From a virus: 64,000 nt of DNA. The translations under genes and the position numbers were made by a program. The stretch lies in IMG/VR virus record IMGVR_UViG_3300021255_002737, one strand, 5' to 3'. Positions 1,788-31,613 of the stretch are shown in pieces. The first letter of the stretch is position 1. Every line of letters starts with the position of its first letter. The notes beneath the pieces were generated by a model. The model was not told the origin of the DNA. It was given only the letters and a program-made list of their open reading frames with translations, and did no database searches.

Positions 1788-3482
1788 TCAATAACTCTTA
1801 TCATCTGCATCGATGAGAGCGGCTAAGGCAGAATCTACATATTTCTTAACGCCATCGCTTGTCACTGGATTACTGGAATTAGCCGTAGGAGCTATATCAA
1901 AGGTTAGAGTATTTTGTTTCGCTGACAATTCTGCTTTAGTGGCATATGTGTTTACGATATTCGCACCATTACCGTCCTGCGTCGCTTTTGTTGCTGTGCC
2001 CTTCAAATCACCGGTAAGGGTAGTTGCAGTCACGCTGTTGAACCTGACGTCCTTACCAAGCTCTGCAAACAGACTCATATCTACGGAACCACCAAGGTTA
2101 TCCCAGCTCTCGCCGTTCCAGACAAGGTTATCTCCTGCATTTACACCATGTGCCTTATCAGCGTTCTTCACGTTATATGAATAACCTACTTGTGGATTTG
2201 TCGGCAAATCGGAGTAATTATCTACAGAACCTTGATAAGTAATTATCTTAGACAATGATTCTTTCGCTGCTTCTACATCGGCCAGAGATTTCTCTGCATT
2301 AGCCTTCGCTGTATCGACAATGGATTGAATTGCCTGTGCTGCTGCAAGTGCTTCTTGGGCTTTCTGCATGTATTCCTTTGCTGTATCCATGTATGACTTA
2401 GCGTTAGATTCAGATACAGCTGCATTAGATTTCGATGCGCTTGCATTGGTCTCCGATGTCAACGCGCTAGATGCAGACTTAGCCGCATTGGTTTCAGAGG
2501 TTTTCGCCTTGTCCTCGGAAGCCTTTGCTGCAGTTGCTCTATCTTTAGAATATAATGCCCATGTTCTACTTGATTGAGTTTTACCAGTAGAGCTATTAGA
2601 GTCAGCTACATTATCAGGGGAAGTTATTGAAGCAGCCCATGCTTTTGATAAATTCATCGAATCGGAAGAAGATTTAGCTGATGTTGCCGAAGAAGTTGCA
2701 GAAGATGATGCATTCGTCTCAGATACTTTTGCATTGGCTTCACTTGTAGCGGCGTCCGATGCGCTCTTTGCACCTTTCGATGCGTTATCTGATGCTTCGT
2801 TCGCCTTATTTGTTGCTACGGTTAAATAGTCAGAAATAGACTGTTCCAGTTCCTTATTGGAGGCATTGAGTTTTTCTACTTTCTCGATATAAGTCTTAAT
2901 CTCTGCAATGGTATTATTGATTTCTGTACTCTTATTTGTAATATCATCATAATACGCTTTTGCATTTGTCTCAGAGCTTTTAGCGTTGGTCTCGCTTGTC
3001 TTGGCATTAGAAGCACTAGTAGATGCGCTATTGGCCCTATTAGTTGCCATAGTAACATTGTCAGCTGTTTGCTTTTGCAGTGCATCGATTTGTTTGAGAT
3101 ATTCCTGTATCTCACTAATAGTTGTACTAACGGCAATGGCCTTGTCGCTATATGTTTTTGCCTGTGATGCACTATCGGCAGCGGCCTGTGCTTGCTTCTT
3201 TGCTTCTTCTGCTTGAGCTTTGGCTGTTGCCTCACCAAAAGAAGAATCGTTCTTCATGGTGTTATACATATCAGTCACAGACTGTTTGATGGCAATCAAA
3301 TCGGAAGTATCTTTTACATCATCGATATTCTCTTTTAACCATCGTAAATCCTCAGCGATAATGTCATAGATACCGCTGTTATCTGATGTAGCAAAAGGGC
3401 TATTCTTGCCCACTACACCGTCTTTCGTTATTGTATCATTGGCATCACGCTGTTCTAAATATTGGAATCCCGCATTTAGCAT
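1788..3482 (-). CDS. tail fibre protein with Ala/Ser-rich coiled-coil repeats
   Basis: 564 aa. Repeated SETNAK/SASxA heptad-like units; C-terminal globular part. Confidence 0.6.
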   Translation of the reverse strand: MLNAGFQYLEQRDANDTITKDGVVGKNSPFATSDNSGIYDIIAEDLRWLKENIDDVKDTSDLIAIKQSVTDMYNTMKNDSSFGEATAKAQAEEAKKQAQAAADSASQAKTYSDKAIAVSTTISEIQEYLKQIDALQKQTADNVTMATNRANSASTSASNAKTSETNAKSSETNAKAYYDDITNKSTEINNTIAEIKTYIEKVEKLNASNKELEQSISDYLTVATNKANEASDNASKGAKSASDAATSEANAKVSETNASSSATSSATSAKSSSDSMNLSKAWAASITSPDNVADSNSSTGKTQSSRTWALYSKDRATAAKASEDKAKTSETNAAKSASSALTSETNASASKSNAAVSESNAKSYMDTAKEYMQKAQEALAAAQAIQSIVDTAKANAEKSLADVEAAKESLSKIITYQGSVDNYSDLPTNPQVGYSYNVKNADKAHGVNAGDNLVWNGESWDNLGGSVDMSLFAELGKDVRFNSVTATTLTGDLKGTATKATQDGNGANIVNTYATKAELSAKQNTLTFDIAPTANSSNPVTSDGVKKYVDSALAALIDADDKSY

Positions 3483-3503: not shown

Positions 3504-6500
3504 TTAACTATTACTGATTGTGTATGGGCTGTTATGCTGGTCTGTACACAGGAAAAATGCATTACCAGAAGCAAGAGGTACGTCTGCTGTGGTATTGAAA
3601 GAATAAGAAGATAGGGATATTCTCGAACGAATAGAAGCACTGCTGGCAACATGATGGCCGTAACTATCTTTAGGATTAAGATGTGTCTCTACTTGTAATT
3701 TAATCGTGCCACTTTGGTTAATCTTGACTGTTGTCGTGTACGAAGTGGACTGGTCACCACCCATGCTTGAAAGGTTAGCTAATGTTTGTTGTTTAATAAC
3801 ATTATTATCCTTGAATACAGATAATGACACTGTTAAATTACTGCCCCTTCTAAGGACATTATTCTCATTGTCGGTTGTTGTGCTTCCATAAGCTACAACA
3901 TCTACTTTTATTACTATAGACGTTTCTGTCGCATCTTCTGGTACTTCTATTGTTTTACTCGATGTCTTTGTTCCATAATAATTCTCGCTATCGCGAGAAG
4001 AACTCCAACCGGTAGTCAGATTGCCTTCCCGTAGCTCTACATTGCCATCTACGTTTTCTATATATGCATTTACAGGAACACTACTGCCAGACCCTGCCTT
4101 AAGGACCGTGCGGCAAACCGCTTGGAACCCATTGTTTGTCACATTCTGCGCTCTGCAATCTAAATACAAATTTGTGCTATTATACCCCGGGATAGCTGTC
4201 TGTAGGCTAATTGGTGTAATAATGACATTCGGCGCATTTTTCCACGGTTTTGTAAATTTAATCCATTGTCCATCTTTTACCGTTCCCATGACCATTGCGC
4301 CGACCATTGCAAAAGTATTGCCATTACCGTCGTGAAATTCCATACCATTTGAGCCGTGTACAACATACGAACCATCATTGCCACGTACAGTAAGGCCATT
4401 GGTATCAAGTGTTGCGCCGCCGCCTTTAATCCCCTGATTAGCAGTGAGTTCCATTGTACTAGCACTCAATTTATCAGCAGTAATAGCTCCTGCGGCTATC
4501 ATGCCACGTACAACGACATTATTGTCAAAATGAGTATCGCCAGTGATATGTATCTTTTTGCCGTCGATGAGAATAGATTCTTTGCTAATATTGATTTGAT
4601 TGATAACATCATTTTTAGACACTCTTAGTGCAATATTGTTATCCAATTGAGCGATAGCACTGTAATTTTTCTTTGCTTTGGTCGAATCGGAGAGGTTTGT
4701 GACAACCGATGTAATACTATTGGCATTCTGCGTGATGCGCGACGACAGCCCAGAAATCTGATTGTTAGCATCGGTGTGATAGTTTTGCACAGTAGAACTC
4801 AATGAATTTGCATTTTGTTTGATTTGGGAAATCTGAGTATCTGTAGCACTTTTATTGCTCTGTACTGTAGATGTCAATCCATTGATATCAACCTTGAGCT
4901 GTGAAATAGACTTATACGCGCTCTTAGACGGGTCAGTGTTGTTAAGATTATTCTCGATAGTTACCTTTACGTTGTCAGCCTTTTGCGATACTTGGGAAAT
5001 GGCACTGTCTGAGTTTGTCTTGTTAGTCTGAACAGTAGACTTTATTTCGTTAGCGGTTTGAGATAACTGTGATATAGACTTGTATGCACTCTTAGATGGG
5101 TCGGTGTTGTTAAGGTTCAGTACAACGGATTTAATAGCACTGTCATTTTGCGAAATTAATGATGCGTGCTCTTGATTAACACCATCCTGTGTAGACTTAT
5201 TGGTGGCAATTATTGATTCTAACTTTCCGTCTTTTTTGTTTAGCTCTTGAATTGACTTATATCCATTCGCGTCCGATGGAGACAGGTTTAACTTGTTGTT
5301 GATATTTGCTATATCATTGTTTAAGTCAGATTTAGCCACGGATATATCATTGTTGATATCGGATATATCATTGTTGATATCGGCTATGTCATTGTCTACT
5401 CCATCGAGCCTCGGAATAGCCTGTTGTGCATCTGATACGGCATCTTGGATTTCCTTATCGACTTTCTTGAGCGATATTGCTTCATCTTTAAGCCACTCAG
5501 GATTCATCTCTGGTTTTATCGTATAAGCATATTTTACCGATGTGTATCCTTCGCCCATCATGTCAACGTAAGAAGCCCAGAAATTGTAAATATCAGGTTC
5601 GCCGTTGAATGTATACGATGCATTATTCAAATCGAACGACTTAGAAATGTTATGTCCTTCTACATAGAGACGCATGGATTTGACACGAGCAGGGAACGGA
5701 GCAACCAGAACATTAACACCGCGTAGTGCTTCGGTGAAGTGAATGTAGCTCGGTGCATCTGGCTTTGGATAATTGTATGTTACTTTCGCAGGATAGCTAT
5801 ATTTCTTTAGCGTATTCACACTATATACATAGACTGTTCCTTTGCGTTCCATCAGATTCACATCGATAGAAGTGGACTGTGTTTTACCAAGCAATCCTAC
5901 AGGAGAGCCAACGTTTGTATCCGTGCGAACTTCATAGTACATTACATCAGAATCAGGGACATCCGACCACTTAAACGTAAAAGCGCTCGTGAAATCGTAG
6001 GTGAGATTGTATGGCTGCGAAGGTACAGTCTCTTTTGCCGTCACCTTAATAGTCACTGTTGGTGCAGATGCTTCCGATGAAATCAGACCGTCAGTTGTAC
6101 GGCTTTGCACACGGAACTCATAGACATCGCCAACCTTTGCATTAGGGATAACGATTTTTGTAGGACTATCTCCTGCATATATCCATTCTCTCGATAAGCC
6201 AACAGAGTCAACAACTTCGCCTTGTTTGAATGTCCCAATTTGAGCAGCAGTCATATGATTGGTCTTATAGTAAACCAACCCTGTCTCTACATCGTATCTC
6301 TGGGGAAGCTCATAAGAACAGATAACGTCATAGCCCGTTGTACCATCTTCGTACCGTCTATACTGCGTATATGCTTTGAGGTTCACTGGATTCGACGGAG
6401 TACGCTTCTCGACGGTCTGTGTCGTATCTGTGTAGTTATACCAATGTATGCCACCGCCTAACGCATCGCCATAGATAGTATCGTTGTACTGACGGCCAGT

Positions 6501-11030: not shown

Positions 11031-14000
11031 TTAACGGAAACCGTGTCGTTTTTGGTTATGGAGAATCGATTGGAACGCTCTTGGGTTCCTCTGGATCGCA
11101 TTCATAACATCATCACTGGATGCGTGTGTATTCAGTACAACGACATTACCAGAGCCATCGGAATTACCCATGTTCTTAATGGTATCCGTCTGCTCCTGCA
11201 TGAGCTGTTCCATGCGTGCATTCGGATTCGTCACACGGACTCCTTCGGCTCTCTTTGCTACACGTGGGGAAATCTGTGGAACATATGGTGTTGGATTCAA
11301 CGCACCACCATCGGCAAATGCACCGTAATTCATGGCATCCAGATTGTCCTTACCAATGCGGCTCGTTGCTTCCGCTGTCATGACATATTCGCCATTAGAA
11401 AGAAAAACGAACCTGTCCTTGTCCGCTAGATATGCGAGGATACTATCAGATTTACCAGTGCCAGCACCACGAATCATACCGCCGTTAGCATACGCTCTGC
11501 TCAGTAATCCGCCCATAGCATGACCACCCAGACTAATGGATGGCGTAGAACCTGCCATGAGCATTGCTTCGGTGAGTGCTTGCATCTGCAATGTCTGTGC
11601 CTGAGTTGTCACTGTATTCGTCTGGACAGCCGTTGTATTCATTGTGTCTTTCAGGTTAGAGGTCTGTGTCAACGTATTGGAAACATTGGTGAGTGCCGTT
11701 GCTTTCTGTGTGACATTACTGAGTTGACTAGTTGCTTGTACAGACTTGTTCACGGAGGATGCGAGTTCTCCACCACTGGATTTCATGGGGAAGTAATTGC
11801 CATTCAGTACACCGTTGCTCATATCAAGATAACGATTACCCGTTGCAACCTGTGTCCATCTCCTTGGTGTAGCCGTGAATCTCGACGCATTATTTGCAAG
11901 AAGTCCAACACCTGCATTGACAGCCGCGTTCTTCCCTGCATTACGATTACTGATTGCATCGTCAATCGTTGTTCTTGCATTGAACAGCCAACGGTTGACC
12001 GTCATTCTCATGATCTGTTGCAATGCAATCTTAGCAACGTCATCCCAGAGCTTTTTCCATGACTCTTTGAAGGAACTACCTTGCTTGATAATATCGAAGA
12101 ACATATCATCAATATCACTCTCAATGGTGCTCCAGAGATTCTTTGTGACTTCATCGTCCTTCTCAGCAATCTCACGGATTTTCGCTTCTGTTTCTTCGAC
12201 CTCTTTTTGTATTTTCTGGAAGTTCTCACTGCCATGCTTTGAAAGCTGGTCAATGTTTTCCTTGAGGTCTTTGGCCTTTGCCTTGAGTTCCGCAATCTTA
12301 TCCTTGGCCTCATCCGTGTTGTCGCCCTTGTATTGAGCAAGTCCCTTCTCTACGAGTTCACCCTTCTCGTTGTGCTTACCATTCTGGATATCATCAAGCT
12401 GTTCGTAGTATTCCTCAAGCTGTTCTTGGTCACGCCTACGAATATCCATGAGACTTTCCCTTTGTCTCTTTAGTCTCTCGTTGTAAATATCAATTTGAGA
12501 CTGATAGAGTTCATGGGTATCCATATACTTTTCCTCGTCAGTTTTATTGGAAGTTGTACGGTTATACCATTCCTCAAGGCGTTTCAGACGGAAGTCCTCA
12601 TCCTGTTCAGGAGTCATATAGCCATTGCGAATCTTTTCATTTACACGTAACTCAGCGAGTTTGCTATCGGCGTTGCTTAACTGCTCACGAACCTTAAAGA
12701 GGTTATCAACGAGTTTCTTGAACTCATTATCCTTCTTACTGGTTAAATCAGCGAGCTTTCTTAATTCGTCCTGTGGCATGTCATAAATGCTTTTGCCGTC
12801 GAGTTTATTTTTGATTTCTACGTGCTGATTAAGGTATTCGTCAATATCGTCCGTAAGATTATCATAGGTCTCAACCCATCCCTTACGGTTTTTCTCTACG
12901 GCTTCATAGTATGACTTTTCGCTTGCATCGTTTGCACGAAGTAATTCATAGGTATCGCCATGAATCTTCATCTGATACTCGATGTTTTTCTTCTTCGCTT
13001 CGTAGAGTTTTTGCTGACGGTCTTGGTCATAGATAGTTTCTGCAATTTGATCTCTTGTGAAATCTGCAAGGGTACTCTTGCGACCATCCCAGAAAGACGG
13101 TTTACGAATACTATTAGCATTGCCCTGCATCGGGCCATTGTGATAGCGATTCCATGCTTCGGTGCCTGTACCATCACCAACAAGAGGGCCTGATGCAGAG
13201 TCAACAGTTCTTCCGTCGTTACCCTGACCAAAGGACACATCGTAGTGAGTGCCACTTTCAACCGCGGCAGAAACACCATAATCTCCAAGAATATCTTTAA
13301 GTACTGCCCCATTATTGTCTATGGACAAGTCTGCTTTATACCCCGCATAGTGTCCCCACGGAGAATTTGAGTGTCCCGAGCCACCAGTCAACGATGTAAT
13401 GGCTAATTTTTGACCAGTTGCGGCATAATAACGGTTTGCAATGATATTGATAAGCCTACGGACGTATGGCTGTAGATTCTCAATGTTATCCCAGCTGCCA
13501 CTCATTGTGATATATCGAGAGTCAAGGCCATACATAGACTTATCATCAACATCGTAGCCGCCACTCTGGATACCATTGACATCACCAGAAGCTCCTTGTC
13601 CTTGACCAATGAGTCCTTCTGACATGATACCTCTCATGCTTGCGGCATAGTCATTAGGATTAGCCGTGAAATATCCATTGGCATACATGCCATTAGCAAG
13701 TTCCTCTGGACTAGACGGCTCAGAATCAAAGTCGTTGTCAATTGTATTGGCAAGTTTTGTTGTAAAGTTATCGTCACTACCTTCGTCTACATCTTCGCCA
13801 CCATCCATACCAGCAAAGTTGTGATTCCGTTTTGCAGCATCGCGCTTGCCACGAGCTGACTCATGCATCATGATGAGCCAATACCAGAGAGGATTCTTGA
13901 CCTTCCGTGCTTTACCAGCGGCATCTACGGCGAGTTCCCAAAGATGTGCTTCGTCTGAATCATTGCCAATGTATGCTTGACCATCGGCAGAAACAGAGCC

Positions 14001-15938
14001 ACTATAGCCACCAAGGTCATAGAGTCCACCTGCTTGCTCATTTGGATCACTGAATCTTTGGTCATTCTTATTGTAATCATAGTGATTACGGAGGAACAAT
14101 GCTTTATCGTTTAACCATGTTTTCCAGTCTTGATCCGTAATGCCAGGCGTAAGGTGTCCCAGTGCTTCTGGCACAGAGAGTCCCTGGGCAAGATATGGTG
14201 CCATCTTCTCATAAAACAAACGTCCAGATTCCCATGTATTGCGTCCACCAGTGCCAAATGGGTCAGACACACCATCGAACTCAAGAGTATTAATACCAGT
14301 CAATTTCGTGACAATAGCAGACAATGTAGCGATGTCAAGGCCATTCCTTGTATCAAAGTTGGCCTCAAACTTTTTAGACAACTCTGCAAACATCTGTGAT
14401 GTCGTGTCGCCATACTGCCAATCCTCTTTTGGGTCTTTCTTTGTGCGTTCACCGCCACTACTACCGCGCTTTTGTCTTTCACTAGGTGTACGATTATACA
14501 CGTCGCCACCAGCACCTTCACCGGAACCCCATTTTTGCAAGAAGTCATTAGGGTCATTAACAACAGGGGCACTTGTATTAAGTCCACTGGCAAGATTCGA
14601 TGCTTCCTGTGTGGCTTTATCAGCCGCCGCTATGATTTTATCGTATCCTGCATGGTATGCTTCCATATACCTGTCGCCCTTAACATCCTCTTGTGCATTT
14701 TCTGCATTTTTGCGCATTTCTGCAACTCTTTGTGTTAAATTACGATACTGTACAACCTCTGCGTTTGACATATGGTAGTCTGGGTCATTGTATCTGTCAT
14801 TCATCTCGTCAATTTTGCTTTGCAGTTCATCTGCTTGCTTCGTATAGCTATTAGCCTGTGCTTGGTCGAACTGTTCTTTCATTTGATAAAAGGCAGTATA
14901 TGCATTTGCCCAATCGCCGAGTGCCTTAATTCTATCACTAATACCATTGCAGAACTCATATGTCTCTTGTTTCCAGGTATTGAGGTTATCCTGTGCGTTC
15001 TGCCAGTTATTCAGAGCCTCTTGCTGTTTTGCCGAAATAAATTCAGCCAATGCCCTTTTCTTGTCATCCGTTGCTTTCTTATAGTTGTCCCGCACCTTCT
15101 TTGTAGAATCATCTGTCCAGTTATCCGCTTGCATCTGTTGTACAGCAGACCATCCGACAACCTGTGCCATTTGGTTCTCTGTTTCGATACGATCCTCAAG
15201 GAGTTTCTTCTTCTTCTCGTCGCTGACCGTGGAACTCTCAATCTCTGCCGTGAGCTTCTGGTGAGCAGTAAAGAGTGCATCAAGAAACTCCTCCTGCTGT
15301 GTGTACATTTCAATCTCTTGGCGCTTCACTGCCACGCTATCCTGGATTGCTTCGGTCTGTTTCTGTACGGCATTTGTACTCTCATTGATGTTGCTTGTGA
15401 GTGCTTCAAGACCAAGGTCAAGTGCAAGAGAGACACCGAATGTTGCGGTGGCTTTCAGTAAACTAATACTGTTCTTTAGTGAAATGATAGCGGCTTTCAG
15501 TCCCCCTGCTGCTGTTGTTGCAGCAGCAAAGGCTGTTGACATGTTACTGATTGTCGCTGTTGCACCACTTGCTGTAATCATGTTTAACGATGTACGAACC
15601 ATTCTCATAGCTCTGTTTACAGCGTACATGATAGCAGCTAATTTCACCATGCTACCAAGGAAACTGTATGTGGATGTACTGACCGTAGACAGGTAATGTG
15701 CCAGATTATCTAATTCCGTAACGCATTCCTTGAGCCATTCGGTAAGGCCACTGTTGCCACCTTGTGCAACCATACCAGTCAAGTCGGCCTTGAGTTTATT
15801 AATGCGACGAGACAGGGAATCCATCTGGTTTTTCACCTGGTTATCCGTGAATCCCATGGAATTGACAGCAAGGCCCCAGTTCTTGATGATTTCCTGATAG
15901 TTACTGAACATTGCTGCTGCTTTTGCCCATTGAAACTT
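11031..15938 (-). CDS. tape measure protein, exon 2 (1635 aa)
   Basis: Hydrophobic segments, long coiled coil, glucosaminidase-like block (MMHESARGKRD...NFAGM), LAS/M15-like block (GHSNSPWGHYAGYKADLS), and a TMP C-terminal motif (GTGKSDSILAYL..GEYVMTAE). Confidence 0.85.
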   Translation of the reverse strand, partial: KFQWAKAAAMFSNYQEIIKNWGLAVNSMGFTDNQVKNQMDSLSRRINKLKADLTGMVAQGGNSGLTEWLKECVTELDNLAHYLSTVSTSTYSFLGSMVKLAAIMYAVNRAMRMVRTSLNMITASGATATISNMSTAFAAATTAAGGLKAAIISLKNSISLLKATATFGVSLALDLGLEALTSNINESTNAVQKQTEAIQDSVAVKRQEIEMYTQQEEFLDALFTAHQKLTAEIESSTVSDEKKKKLLEDRIETENQMAQVVGWSAVQQMQADNWTDDSTKKVRDNYKKATDDKKRALAEFISAKQQEALNNWQNAQDNLNTWKQETYEFCNGISDRIKALGDWANAYTAFYQMKEQFDQAQANSYTKQADELQSKIDEMNDRYNDPDYHMSNAEVVQYRNLTQRVAEMRKNAENAQEDVKGDRYMEAYHAGYDKIIAAADKATQEASNLASGLNTSAPVVNDPNDFLQKWGSGEGAGGDVYNRTPSERQKRGSSGGERTKKDPKEDWQYGDTTSQMFAELSKKFEANFDTRNGLDIATLSAIVTKLTGINTLEFDGVSDPFGTGGRNTWESGRLFYEKMAPYLAQGLSVPEALGHLTPGITDQDWKTWLNDKALFLRNHYDYNKNDQRFSDPNEQAGGLYDLGGYSGSVSADGQAYIGNDSDEAHLWELAVDAAGKARKVKNPLWYWLIMMHESARGKRDAAKRNHNFAGMDGGEDVDEGSDDNFTTKLANTIDNDFDSEPSSPEELANGMYANGYFTANPNDYAASMRGIMSEGLIGQGQGASGDVNGIQSGGYDVDDKSMYGLDSRYITMSGSWDNIENLQPYVRRLINIIANRYYAATGQKLAITSLTGGSGHSNSPWGHYAGYKADLSIDNNGAVLKDILGDYGVSAAVESGTHYDVSFGQGNDGRTVDSASGPLVGDGTGTEAWNRYHNGPMQGNANSIRKPSFWDGRKSTLADFTRDQIAETIYDQDRQQKLYEAKKKNIEYQMKIHGDTYELLRANDASEKSYYEAVEKNRKGWVETYDNLTDDIDEYLNQHVEIKNKLDGKSIYDMPQDELRKLADLTSKKDNEFKKLVDNLFKVREQLSNADSKLAELRVNEKIRNGYMTPEQDEDFRLKRLEEWYNRTTSNKTDEEKYMDTHELYQSQIDIYNERLKRQRESLMDIRRRDQEQLEEYYEQLDDIQNGKHNEKGELVEKGLAQYKGDNTDEAKDKIAELKAKAKDLKENIDQLSKHGSENFQKIQKEVEETEAKIREIAEKDDEVTKNLWSTIESDIDDMFFDIIKQGSSFKESWKKLWDDVAKIALQQIMRMTVNRWLFNARTTIDDAISNRNAGKNAAVNAGVGLLANNASRFTATPRRWTQVATGNRYLDMSNGVLNGNYFPMKSSGGELASSVNKSVQATSQLSNVTQKATALTNVSNTLTQTSNLKDTMNTTAVQTNTVTTQAQTLQMQALTEAMLMAGSTPSISLGGHAMGGLLSRAYANGGMIRGAGTGKSDSILAYLADKDRFVFLSNGEYVMTAEATSRIGKDNLDAMNYGAFADGGALNPTPYVPQISPRVAKRAEGVRVTNPNARMEQLMQEQTDTIKNMGNSDGSGNVVVLNTHASSDDVMNAIQRNPRAFQSILHNQKRHGFR

Positions 15939-16200
15939 CAATTTGTTACTCATAAAAAATAAGCCATAGCTTATCATTACGGGTACGGTCATTTCTGCCG
16001 TACTCTCACGTTTTATTTCATGACTATATCGTGAGTTCGGACTATACATTCATCCCTCGACTTTACGTTAGGGAGGCTATTTGTAGTCTCTACGGTTCCC
16101 TATATAGGTTTTACCACGGTCTTGTCCTGTCATTAGGAGTTTAACCGTTATTAAAGCATACTAATAATATATTTCTATATTATGCGGCAAGTTTAGGTCT
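15939..16200 (-). ncRNA. group I self-splicing intron, 262 nt, no ORF
   Basis: P/Q/R/S elements are present in order. P1 has a U.G wobble at the 5' splice site; there is a 6-bp P10, an omega-G, and in-frame exon ligation. Details are in the findings. Confidence 0.8.
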
Positions 16201-18363
16201 ACCGCCACTCATTTGAATCCAGAGGTCTTTCAGGTTTTTGTTTGTCCCTTGGGCAGCAACAGCAACATCCATTAAGACAGCCTGTGCAGAGCGAACTTTG
16301 GTGACACCATTGACAACCTCTGTGGTTGCAATGCCGAGCTTATTGAGTTCCTTTACAGCCTTATCGCTATTGAACGATGCAAGCATTGTCTTGAGCATAT
16401 TACCAATTTCCGAACCACTCAATGCCGTTGCACGAGTACCTTGAGCAATGAGTGCATTAAGGAACTCGAAGGAGATTCCTGCCTGTTTAGCGACCGAACC
16501 AGAGCGTTCTACGCCAGCTGCAAGGTCTTGAGCAGAGACACCTGCATTGTGAGATAACTTGGTATATACATCGACAATCTTATTGGAATATGCCAATGCT
16601 TCTGCACTGTTCTTTGCAACAAGTCCGTACTGGAACATAGCTGCTTCTACGGCCTTTGTGGACTCTGCCATAGAGAAGTTATCGGCAACAGCCAGTTTTG
16701 CTGATTGAGAAACCAATGTATTGACCGTTGCTTGGTCTTTGTACATACGTCCCCAAAGTCTTGCAGATTCCATAACATCCTTTACAGACTCACCGTATGC
16801 GCTTGCCGTGTTAATGAGTGCTCGTTGCTCCTCTTGGTATTTCTCAATGGCTTCAGACGATTTACCTTCAAGCTGCGGCATGACCGTTGCCAAGTTATGC
16901 ATTTCCTCATCGAGTTTAACAAGAGAATTGAATGTTTCCGTTGGAACTGCAAAAGCCGCACCAAGCAATGAACCTGCGGTAATCCAATACAGATGACTAC
17001 GCAATTTCTGTTCAAACGACGCAAACTTTTTTGAAGGTTCAGTGTTGTTCACGTCTTTCTGGAAAGCCTCATACTCTTTCCGTACAGCTGCAAGGCTCGC
17101 TTTAACGTTATCCAGTGCGGCCTTATTTGCAGCAGTAGGATCGCTTTTCCAGAGGGCATAGACTCTCTGTTGAACATCTTCAAGTCTACGAAGTTCCCTT
17201 GTATACGATTGGATACCCTCTGCCCATTTACCAGTTGGATCAACTGGCTGTACAGAAGGTGTAGTTGGTGCAGGATTCTTTGTTGTGTTCATACTTCTCT
17301 GATAGGCTTCTTGTTCTGCCCTTACCTTTGCAATGGTAGTAGCAAGTTTATCAAGGTTTTGCCTTGCTTCCTGTGAGCCATCGTGTCTCCAGACGATATA
17401 CATCTGCTCCTGCAATGCCATCAACCGTGATAATTCCTGGGAATACGTCCTGAGTCCAGTTGACCATGCTTCAAGGTTCTTCTGCATAACAGCCTTGTTT
17501 TGTGCTTCGGAATTGTTGAATGAGCTGAATGGAGACGTGAATGTCTTTGCTCCGCCGATTTTCTGATATTCAGCAAGGAGTTGATTGAACTGTTTCATTG
17601 ATAACTCAAAGTCTGCTCTCTTGACCTGCTGTCCACGTTCCATAGCAAGAGTCTGTCTATCAATGATCCTTTCGATTTGTGTCTCAAGTTCTGCACGACG
17701 TTTTAACTCATCAATAGCAGCCTGAGTACTCCACTTATATGTCGAGTAGTTCTCACTATTGTAAACATTGTCACGAGCAATACCATATTCTCTGAGCTTT
17801 GTAATGACCTCATCCAACGCATTTCTGCGGTTATACCATGTAGATTCAGGAATGAGCTTATTGTTACTCTGGGCAATCGAAAGAGTGCGTGTTAACTGCT
17901 CGTACTTCTTGAGTAATTTATCAATAGCTTCATTGTCTTTAATAGCAGCTTCCTGCATCTTCGTCATGTCCTGAACAAGGTTATTGAAAGAGCTTGCCTT
18001 GATATTTTTCAGGGTATCTTCCAGAGTCTTTTCAAGGGAACGTAAAGACTGCTCTGTCTGCTCTACACCATTAACTTTAATGGATGCGCCCTTGTTCAGC
18101 AACTCAATGCCACGCTTAACCTCACGCAAATCCTCACTGATCGTGTGAAGGTTTGATTTGAAGTTATCATTAACACCAATATTTACATTGGAATTATTCA
18201 GTTTATCAACGAAATTCTTTGCACTTTCGAGGGATTTCTTGACACCCTCAATTTTATCCGTGCCATTGGCAATGATATTGATTTCATATACCAACTGTTG
18301 TTTGTCTGCCATTTTATCCCTCCAATTTGACATAAAAAAATAAGGGATACCATGTTTTACCAC
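16201..18363 (-). CDS. tape measure protein, exon 1 (721 aa)
   Basis: TP901-type TMP core (ATVMPQLEG...ASAYGESVKDVMESARLWGRMY). The last 6 codons and stop of the ORF-track ORF lie in the intron. Confidence 0.85.
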
Positions 18364-29814: not shown

Positions 29815-29889
29815 TGGAGCTACCAGCAGGAATTGCACCCGCGTCCATGGTGTACAAGGCCATTGTTCTGCTTATTGAACTATGGTAGC
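29815..29889 (-). tRNA. tRNA-Thr(UGU)-like, CCA encoded
   Basis: 75 nt. 7-bp acceptor GCTACCA/TGGTAGC; D stem GTTC/GAAC; anticodon loop CTTGTAC; T stem GCGGG/CCTGC. Atypical T loop (TGCAATT) and no GG in the D loop. Confidence 0.55.
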
Positions 29890-29896
29890 ATGATGA

Positions 29897-30033
29897 AACC
29901 GTAGGATGGATTTGAACCACCATAAAGGAACAAGATGCGCTAGAAACACCTCGGTATGTACTTTCCTTGCTCTAGCCGTTGTGAAGGTCTTTACGTCATG
30001 GCATAATACCTTAACACATTGAGCTACTACGGT
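29897..30033 (-). tRNA. 137-nt tRNA-like gene with insertions; internal hairpin has a CUA anticodon-type loop
   Basis: 7-bp acceptor ACCGTAG/CTACGGT; TAGCTCAATG...GGCTAGAGC D-arm halves; canonical T arm GGTGG-TTCAAAT-CCATC; hairpin GGTGT-TTCTAGC-GCATC. Confidence 0.4.
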
Positions 30034-30837: not shown

Positions 30838-31613
30838 ATAACACCATACCTTTCAAAGAAACATTCCTTATTCTCGACAACAATCACAAGACGTTAACCT
30901 TGCTTTTGCTATAAAATAACGGCGAGCGACAGGGAAGGAATGGTAAAACCTGTCAATGGGGAGCTACCCCGACTCGCCGGTATAAACAAATAAACATAAA
31001 ACTACACTGGAAAATAAGGTTTCCCTTTATGTCCTCATGTTCTGTGTTATTGTGTTACGAGCAATACAAGTCTGAGCAACGACTAGCAACTTTCGCGCTT
31101 CTTGCACTAGGAGCTAACTCCCCTATGACTCGACAGGACTATGACCTGCATCTTTCATTCATCATTCAGAAATGATATGCTTTTTCTAACCAATATTATG
31201 CAGATTGAACTACTCTACCTATCTACTTCCGTTATAGCTGCGGTTAAACAGCGTCACTGCAATACCTGTTTGATTGGGTTTATACCTATGGTTAGACCAT
31301 GTGAACCCAGACACATGATTTCATAGGCGACCGTATTGGTGCTTGCACAGGCCGGAAGGGACGGACACTACACTCGACATGATTCACACATATCCCAACA
31401 AGATAAGCTCTTTGAACTCTCATCGGCATAATCGCTTACGTCAACTAATGAATGGTACAGGCTATCGTCTATATCATCCATTTCTCTTAACAGGGATATT
31501 CTCAGCGGACTGACAATCCTCTGCACTGAGTTATCTTCCAGTACAGTTTTATGTCTATTTATAATGGTGGGGATGGTTTAATTGGACACATCCCCATAAA
31601 AATAAAATATTAC
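30838..31613. ncRNA. candidate large structured non-coding RNA (776 nt)
   Basis: No credible ORF; many nested GC-rich helices; one gene away from the tRNA cluster. Confidence 0.35.
30881..30909 (-). repeat. 29-nt box upstream of an antirepressor gene (copy a)
   Basis: caatcacaagacgttaaccttgcttttgc matches 32229-32257 at 28 of 29 positions. Confidence 0.7.

Follow-up and report, generated by a model that had tools for sequence, protein, structure and literature searches.

Whether the tape-measure gene of the viral record IMGVR_UViG_3300021255_002737 (IMG/VR) encodes two proteins or one, and what the sequence between its two halves is, are the questions raised by this locus. The whole stretch analysed, called here the window, is 64,000 nucleotides long. 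Its late module, of siphovirus type and on the minus strand, comprises the terminase large subunit, the portal, a tube-like protein, the split tape-measure protein, tail assembly and a J-like tail protein. The tape-measure sequence is carried by the ORFs 18363-16180 (-) and 16049-11031 (-), which are in different frames and are separated by the gap 16200-15939 (262 nt, minus strand); public gene callers annotate two genes here, of 710 aa and 1672 aa. The original prediction was that the gap is a group I intron without an ORF. We consider it very probable that the gap is filled by an ORF-less group I intron able to splice, and that the tape-measure gene so interrupted belongs to a siphovirus-type prophage whose host is Mitsuokella-like (Selenomonadaceae). 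Homologues that run through the junction, covariation and relatives bearing an endonuclease support this reading.

The exon junction was defined by comparison with uninterrupted genes. Exon 1 (16201..18312, -) encodes 704 aa from the ATG at 18312, includes most of the PF10145/TIGR01760 domain and has ..GGCGGT as its 3' end at 16201; the mechanical ORF opens further upstream, at GTG 18363. Exon 2 (11031..15938, -) opens with AAG TTT CAA TGG, that is KFQW, and encodes 1635 aa followed by the stop codon. Removal of exactly 262 nt joins GGT^AAG in frame (^ marks the junction) and gives ..SGG^KFQW.., the predicted spliced junction sequence being GATGAGTGGCGGTAAGTTTCAATGGGC. Unspliced read-through appends RPKLAA to exon 1 and meets a stop at 16182-16180 (UAA, just after P1); the upstream ORF terminates in ..IQMSGGRPKLAA and this stop, and the unspliced product has 710 aa and ends ..GGRPKLAA. 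A 500-aa piece of the joined protein with the junction at residue 250 was matched by TIGR01760 (tape_meas_TP901) in one stretch that spans the junction, residues 12-356, at profile positions 17-346 of 349 and with 73.7 bits (cut-off 28.8), while PF10145 matched residues 48-239 with 72.2 bits. The spliced gene product is thus a tape-measure protein of the TP901 family, above the curated cut-off.

In a search of 1.84 billion representative proteins, many uninterrupted tape-measure proteins covered the 500-aa query from about residue 1 to about residue 499 in a single stretch. The intron-less locus L009, from a Sporomusaceae MAG, and 15 further uninterrupted proteins read ..(S/A)GG^KFQW(A/S)K.. 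and are gap-free at the junction, which agrees with the in-frame ligation GGT^AAG that had been proposed. This motif ranks with the best-conserved stretches of the aligned tape-measure region. At the DNA level L009 has GCAGGCGGC AAGTTTCAATGGGC, and the window has AGTGGCGGT, the intron and then AAGTTTCAATGGGC.

The proteins of all relatives begin MADKQQ.. (ATG 18312), and therefore a spliced protein of 2339 aa is likelier than one of 2356 aa from the GTG start. Of the single 2356-aa tape measure originally predicted, the single protein is supported, TIGR01760 matching in one stretch, and the length is probably not right. The ATG at 16049 was considered as the start of exon 2 and rejected; this frame is closed in the related loci L001, L002 and L004. 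Another ATG, in frame and 15 nt before the 3' splice site, is present in the window and in L001, L002 and L004, with no Shine-Dalgarno-like sequence upstream of it.

The anatomy of the intron (15939..16200, -; 262 nt) was established by mapping 57 pairs by hand, base by base. The intron begins with AGACC, its first base being A (16200), and ends ..AAATTG, with the omega G at 15939. P1 (16184..16205, -) is formed by the exon GCGGU 16205-16201 together with the intron AG 16200-16199 against UUGCCGC 16190-16184, around the loop ACCUAAAC. The internal guide sequence (IGS) GCCGC lies at 16188-16184 and leaves at the splice site the wobble U16201.G16188, as foreseen from the GCGGU/GCCGC pairing. The P10 guide AAACUU (16189..16194, -) is complementary over 6 bp to the first six exon-2 bases, AAGUUU 15938-15933, again in accordance with the original prediction, and changes in L004 and L135 are compensatory. 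P2 (16164..16183, -) is an 8-bp hairpin with a GAAA tetraloop, in which a double change converts A-U to G-C in L004. The 5' strand of P3, GCU (16155..16157, -), pairs with the 3' strand AGC (16076..16078, -) in a pseudoknot with P7; it has only 3 bp in the window copy, and C-G becomes U-A in L004. P3 has 5-6 bp in other family members and co-varies there, for example as CTTCAC/GTGAAG, GCTAC/GTAGC and CCGCGC/GCGCGG.

P4 (16116..16148, -) consists of ACGGU 16148-16144 and ACCGU 16120-16116 and encloses P5 (16125..16138, -; UCCU/AGGA), which is wholly exchanged for GCUA/UAGU in L005. P6 and P6a (16094..16115, -) follow with GGU/ACC and CCU/AGG, respectively, and the P6a loop, AUAU, is the position of the endonuclease gene in relatives. 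The 5' strand of P7 (16084..16090, -; G.GACUA, with A16089 bulged) lies inside the R element GUAGAGACUACA, and the 3' strand UAGUCC (16039..16044, -) inside the S element AAUGUAUAGUCC. Between them stands the P8 hairpin CCCUAACGUAAAGUCGAGGG (16054..16073, -), with (T)CCCT/AGGG(A). The 3' domain is composed of P9 (16005..16035, -; CUCACG/CGUGAG, 19-nt loop), P9.1 (15983..16003, -; GUACGG/CCGUAC) with the conserved loop CAGAAAUGA, P9.2 (15959..15974, -; core AUAAG/CUUAU, 11 bp in L001 and L004) and the conserved 3' tail GAGUAACAA AUUG (15939..15951, -), which ends in the omega G. The P9.1 stem is GCAUGG/CCAUGC in L004 and L005, GAUAGG/CCUAUC in L007 and GAUAAG/CUUAUC in L135, and the loop stays CAGAAAUGA. 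The elements listed in the original prediction (IGS, P10, P4, P7, P8, P2, P9 and the terminal G) all lie where it had placed them; P3, P6/P6a, P9.1 and P9.2 are present as well and had gone unlisted.

The helices follow the canonical group I order P1-P2-P3-P4-P5-P6-P7-P3'-P8-P7'-P9, with the P3/P7 pseudoknot and with covariation, a U.G wobble at the 5' splice site, an omega G and a P10 pairing with the 3' exon, and excision restores a conserved, uninterrupted coding sequence. Only CAAAU stands between P7 and P3' in the window copy, which leaves no room for a P7.1/P7.2 insertion, and none is present; hairpins do occur at this position in some other family members. An assignment to subgroup IA2 was dropped, considering that the window lacks P7.1/P7.2, that our covariance model (R1, see below) matches the T4 td intron weakly and in its 5' half only, and that the 3' domain of td is different.

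The minimum free energy of the single sequence was -69.4 kcal/mol (z = -4.17), as good as which none of 200 shuffles was, and this fold recovered P1, P2, P4, P5, P6, P6a, P7, P8, P9, P9.1 and P9.2. The best match of the gap to any Rfam model was to that of group I, RF00028, at 19.0 bits (E = 0.022 in a 751-nt search), and in it the R and S elements are aligned. In this check, which had been proposed beforehand, group I is the best match, and its score stays below the gathering score of 50, which is a curated annotation cut-off and no property of the molecule. Nothing in the gap matched at the Rfam gathering threshold, the RF00028 match is missing from the whole-window scan at E<=1, and six related intron-bearing loci gave no match to RF00028 at E<=1. 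The 19 bits against a cut-off of 50 and the six missed loci indicate that RF00028 under-detects this family, whose 3' domain it does not capture.

The covariation was measured in two ways. A plain MAFFT alignment of L004 and L008 with the window showed 6 double compensatory changes, one each in P2, P3, P6a and P8 and two in P9.1; between L004 and the window there were zero pair-breaking substitutions, the unpaired cells being gaps at two helix-end pairs only. We also built a covariance model, R1, from four close copies, with 55 pairs and with P3 omitted because it is pseudoknotted, so that P3 stands outside the statistics of the large alignment and its covariation is given above as examples only. 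R1 had a single match in the window, which is the intron itself (350 bits); in 100 sources it had 130 matches. Among 118 distinct members aligned to it, 95.5% of cells were in standard pairs, against 33-42% when the partners were slid by 1-3 columns; double changes occurred in 54 of the 55 pairs, and none of 500 shuffles reached any of these measures. This alignment was fitted to the model structure and so favours that structure, a bias of which the MAFFT result on close relatives is independent. P9 was paired in 100% of cells, with double changes in all 6 pairs, and P9.1 in 99.2%. The commonest type at the splice-site pair of P1 was U.G (45/68). Full-length members had U before the 5' splice site in 31 of 40 cases, its IGS partner G in 32 of 40 and the omega G in 35 of 43. 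In P7 the G-C pair between intron positions 113 and 161, beside the bulged base at 112, was found in 44 of 45 full-length members and in 99 of 103 in the R1 alignment; such a pair beside a bulged base is what a predicted guanosine site would consist of.

The family is widespread among viral contigs. Its P9.1 loop and 3' tail (CAGAAATGACC N15-45 GAGTAACAA) were found in at least 119 IMG/VR contigs. When the region was compared by blastn with 50,697 phage records there was no match; a short-query blastn gave matches of 20-27 nt only, and when isolate phages were searched by tblastn with the junction piece, the tape-measure genes recovered were all distant (24-31% identity) and uninterrupted. Among the isolate phages of the searched collection, none bears the window intron.

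The guide sequences track the exons across loci and sites. At the site GG^K the window and L134 have P1 GCGGU/GCCGC and P10 AAACUU/AAGUUU; L004 keeps the same P1 pairing and has P10 GAUUU/AAAUU, and L135, whose host protein is 51% identical, has P1 GGGGU/GCCCU and P10 CAUUU/AAAUG. At a second site, ..DSG^KLWAR.., the intron of L007 has P1 CGGU/GCCG and P10 AACUU/AAGUU. At a third, inside ..ALSG^S.., L005, L006 and L010 have P1 GGGGU/GCCCC and no evident P10. In L004 a synonymous exon change, AAG to AAA, is met by a change of the guide from C to U, and a P10 which follows a synonymous change in the exon implies continuing selection for splicing. The L007 target, TCCGGT^AAGTTATGGGC, resembles that of the window, GGCGGT^AAGTTTCAATGGGC, with CGGT^AAGTT in common. 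The L007 intron itself (1993-3000 in IMGVR_UViG_3300050034_000098) encodes a GIY-YIG + NUMOD3 endonuclease and carries the guide AAACUUGCCGC as in the window. It was also seen that the N-terminal tape-measure ORFs P0086 and P0199 end ..SGAEIG(C/K)L..AA before their stop codon, an ending which may point to a fourth intron site, three codons beyond that of L005.

Several relatives carry an endonuclease inside the intron. At the same site as in the window, the intron of L003 is 1316 nt long and has a GIY-YIG ORF in place of the P6a loop (intron positions 93-102), the loop in which the I-TevI ORF of the T4 td intron presumably lies as well. The L003 ORF matched Pfam PF01541 at 2.7e-9, and its matches to homing endonuclease families of PHROG reached 1e-34. 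A second small intron ORF in L003 (4653-4889, 78 aa), downstream of the first, showed a weak match to the AP2 domain (E = 0.005). GIY-YIG ORFs inside the intron were also found in L134, L135 and L007, the insertion in P6a of L134 coming after GGTAAAA. The intron RNA of L134 is near-identical to that of the window while its host tape-measure protein is only 67% identical, a pattern that one would expect if the intron had spread horizontally by homing. The tail ..SGG(R/E)(P/R)KLAA, followed by a stop codon, closes many diverged N-terminal tape-measure ORFs; it is the P1 guide region read through. The window copy itself has no ORF of 40 aa or more inside the gap other than a spurious 5' extension of the exon-2 ORF, and no homing endonuclease, as had been predicted. 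Considering that same-site relatives have a GIY-YIG ORF, we take the window copy for a derivative that has no ORF and read it as passively inherited.

Other intron ORFs were observed besides. L005 (3536-4554; also L006 and L074; IMGVR_UViG_3300045988_151874) has a homologous intron at the ..ALSG^S.. site with two hydrophobic ORFs of small membrane-protein type (83 aa, 3637-3888, and 158 aa, 3888-4364) and no homing endonuclease; neither hydrophobic ORF has a match in Pfam or PHROG. In each of the IMG/VR contigs L084, L061, L070, L079 and L102, the intron family is represented by two to five copies spaced over a few kilobases, and this clustering in single viral contigs suggests genes with multiple introns.

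Other readings of the gap were weighed against a functional intron. It could be a decayed remnant that no longer splices, in which case two polypeptides would be made, the 710-aa protein ending ..GGRPKLAA and an exon-2 product from the ATG at 15953 (MSNKLKFQW..). We hold this to be improbable. The absence of an ORF, by which the window copy is not under homing selection, the P3 of only 3 bp, the sub-threshold Rfam score and the in-frame ATG kept 15 nt before exon 2 among the window, L001, L002 and L004 would all suit a remnant; yet no Shine-Dalgarno-like sequence precedes that ATG, and all the helices are intact. Furthermore, where close relatives differ, the changes compensate one another (L004 shows 6 double changes and not one substitution that breaks a pair), P10 tracks the synonymous exon change, and it is the invariant SGGKFQW motif that the split interrupts. 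We give very little credence to a gap without any intron, whether an intergenic spacer or an IS, MITE or group II element between genuine genes, or a site of frameshift or bypass recoding. The presence of a group I core with covariation, the boundaries that are base-exact against intron-less homologues and the homing endonucleases in P6a of relatives argue against a spacer or another kind of element, whatever weight is given to the two ORFs in different frames and to the public gene callers, which make two separate genes of them. Neither repeats nor a transposase, as an IS or MITE would have, were found in the gap, and group II features are absent, because no Rfam family other than group I matches there. 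Recoding would have to bypass 262 nt, which is unnecessary here, and we know of no precedent for a translational bypass of that length.

An intein was also considered and rejected. That foreign sequence had been inserted into an intact gene by assembly or sequencing is scarcely conceivable; nothing was found in favour of it. About 75 close relatives (88-100% identity) share the identical stop point; the split recurs in that number of independent protein clusters and in many contigs, among them the complete Mitsuokella multacida DSM 20544 genome, and is therefore no artefact. In DSM 20544 (L008; NZ_CP145849.1, near 1.789 Mb) this intron occupies the same site, and exon 2 opens there with AAAUUC.

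For the preferred reading, a splicing group I intron, we infer catalysis and splicing in vivo from established group I intron chemistry, that is, guanosine attack, docking of the omega G, alignment by P10 and ligation of the exons. The late transcript would fold into a group I core. P1 would arise in it from the pairing of GCGGU, at the end of exon 1, with the internal guide GCCGC, and U.G would mark the splice site. A free guanosine held in P7 would attack after U16201; the terminal G15939 would then take the same P7 site, with exon 2 held by P10 (AAACUU/AAGUUU). Ligation of GGU^AAG would produce one mRNA and one tape-measure protein of some 2339 aa (2356 from the GTG start) with an intact ..SGGKFQWAK.., and RNA left unspliced would yield the 710-aa product. 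The lineage would spread by homing into this highly conserved site, as the relatives with GIY-YIG in P6a show.

Introns in tape-measure genes have been described before. In prophages of the Bacillus cereus group, including lambdaBa01-like ones, the group I introns TMP-IVS1/2/3 occupy three positions of the tape-measure gene (Tourasse and Kolsto 2008, PMC2504315). Related copies are fitted there to different sites via P1/IGS and P10, some copies are without a complete endonuclease gene, the sites are highly conserved and the introns are reported as IA1/IA2 (PMC2504315). The introns studied here are alike in being of group I and in lying in a prophage tape-measure gene at several sites, here GG^K, SG^K and ALSG^S. 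They differ in the host, which here belongs to the Negativicutes (Mitsuokella, Anaerovibrio, Sporomusaceae), and the window copy is without the P7.1/P7.2 insertion, whereas the Bacillus introns were reported as IA1/IA2; this comparison is with their published description only.

The td intron of T4 (IA2, GIY-YIG I-TevI; M12742) is likewise a phage self-splicing group I intron, and L003 and L134 have, as noted, GIY-YIG in P6a. R1 aligned with td over the half P1-P2-P4-P5-P6 at 16.3 bits (E = 3.7e-5), and the td P9 hairpin CUGCAUGGUGACAUGCAG resembles those of members of the window-intron family. In contrast, td has the P7.1/P7.2 insertion, another 3' domain, no CAGAAAUGA loop and no GAGUAACAA tail, and it carries an ORF while the window copy has none. 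With the RF00028 consensus, the R (AGACUA) and S (AUAGUC) elements, P1, P2, P4-P6, P8 and P9 align with the window. The endolysin gene of Staphylococcus phage Lacachita (OP142323) contains an intron annotated as 'Group I catalytic intron' with an AP2-domain ORF. It is like the window intron in lying in a phage late gene and in having the identical 20-nt hairpin CCCUAACGUAAAGUCGAGGG; it differs in its host gene and in that CCCUAACGUAAAGUCGAGGG stands at the P5 position. R1 gave no match on the loci of Lacachita and of Vibrio phage phi 1. As a separate observation, the P8 20-mer CCCTAACGTAAAGTCGAGGG is 100% identical in Staphylococcus and Vibrio phage introns (L131 2501-2520; L132 2501-2520), where the P4 strands enclose it in the position of P5, whereas in the window it is P8. 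This hairpin may be a portable tetraloop-receptor-like module, possibly the partner of the P2 GAAA loop.

A further reading of the family, which we put forward tentatively and regard as rather doubtful, is that one lineage has been repeatedly re-targeted to at least three sites, and perhaps a fourth, of TP901-type tape-measure genes in Negativicutes phages, with its guides rewritten, and with cargo other than a nuclease in L005 and L006. Ectopic insertion by reverse splicing would fit with the CGGU^AAGUU common to two of the targets. If this were true, the intron of L005 and L006 would be a group I intron serving as a vehicle for non-nuclease cargo.

Elsewhere in the prophage, a full-length ROOL RNA (RF03087, 214.8 bits, model positions 1-574) is encoded at 30997-31554 (-) of the window and adjoins tRNA genes. 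There is a tRNA-Thr(tgt) at 29815-29889 (-), and directly upstream of it a 137-nt tRNA-like element at 29897-30033 (-), which matched RF00005 at 35.8 bits (cut-off 29); ARAGORN made no call for this element. Its four stems align, but its D loop has 44 nt and its anticodon loop 32 nt.

The intron of the window is the same phenomenon as the tape-measure introns of the Bacillus cereus-group prophages, here in phages of Negativicutes, to which such introns are thus extended; the general knowledge of group I introns is unchanged by it. The division of one gene into products of 710 aa and 1672 aa by gene callers corrupts the inference of tail length and the clustering of proteins. At least 119 viral contigs, many with several introns per locus, carry the 3' motif CAGAAAUGACC...GAGUAACAA, and, taking into account that the standard Rfam model misses the family, a covariance model made for it would recover many phage introns that now lack annotation. 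Copies at the same site and at different sites, with and without an endonuclease, form a natural series for the study of how guide sequences adapt.
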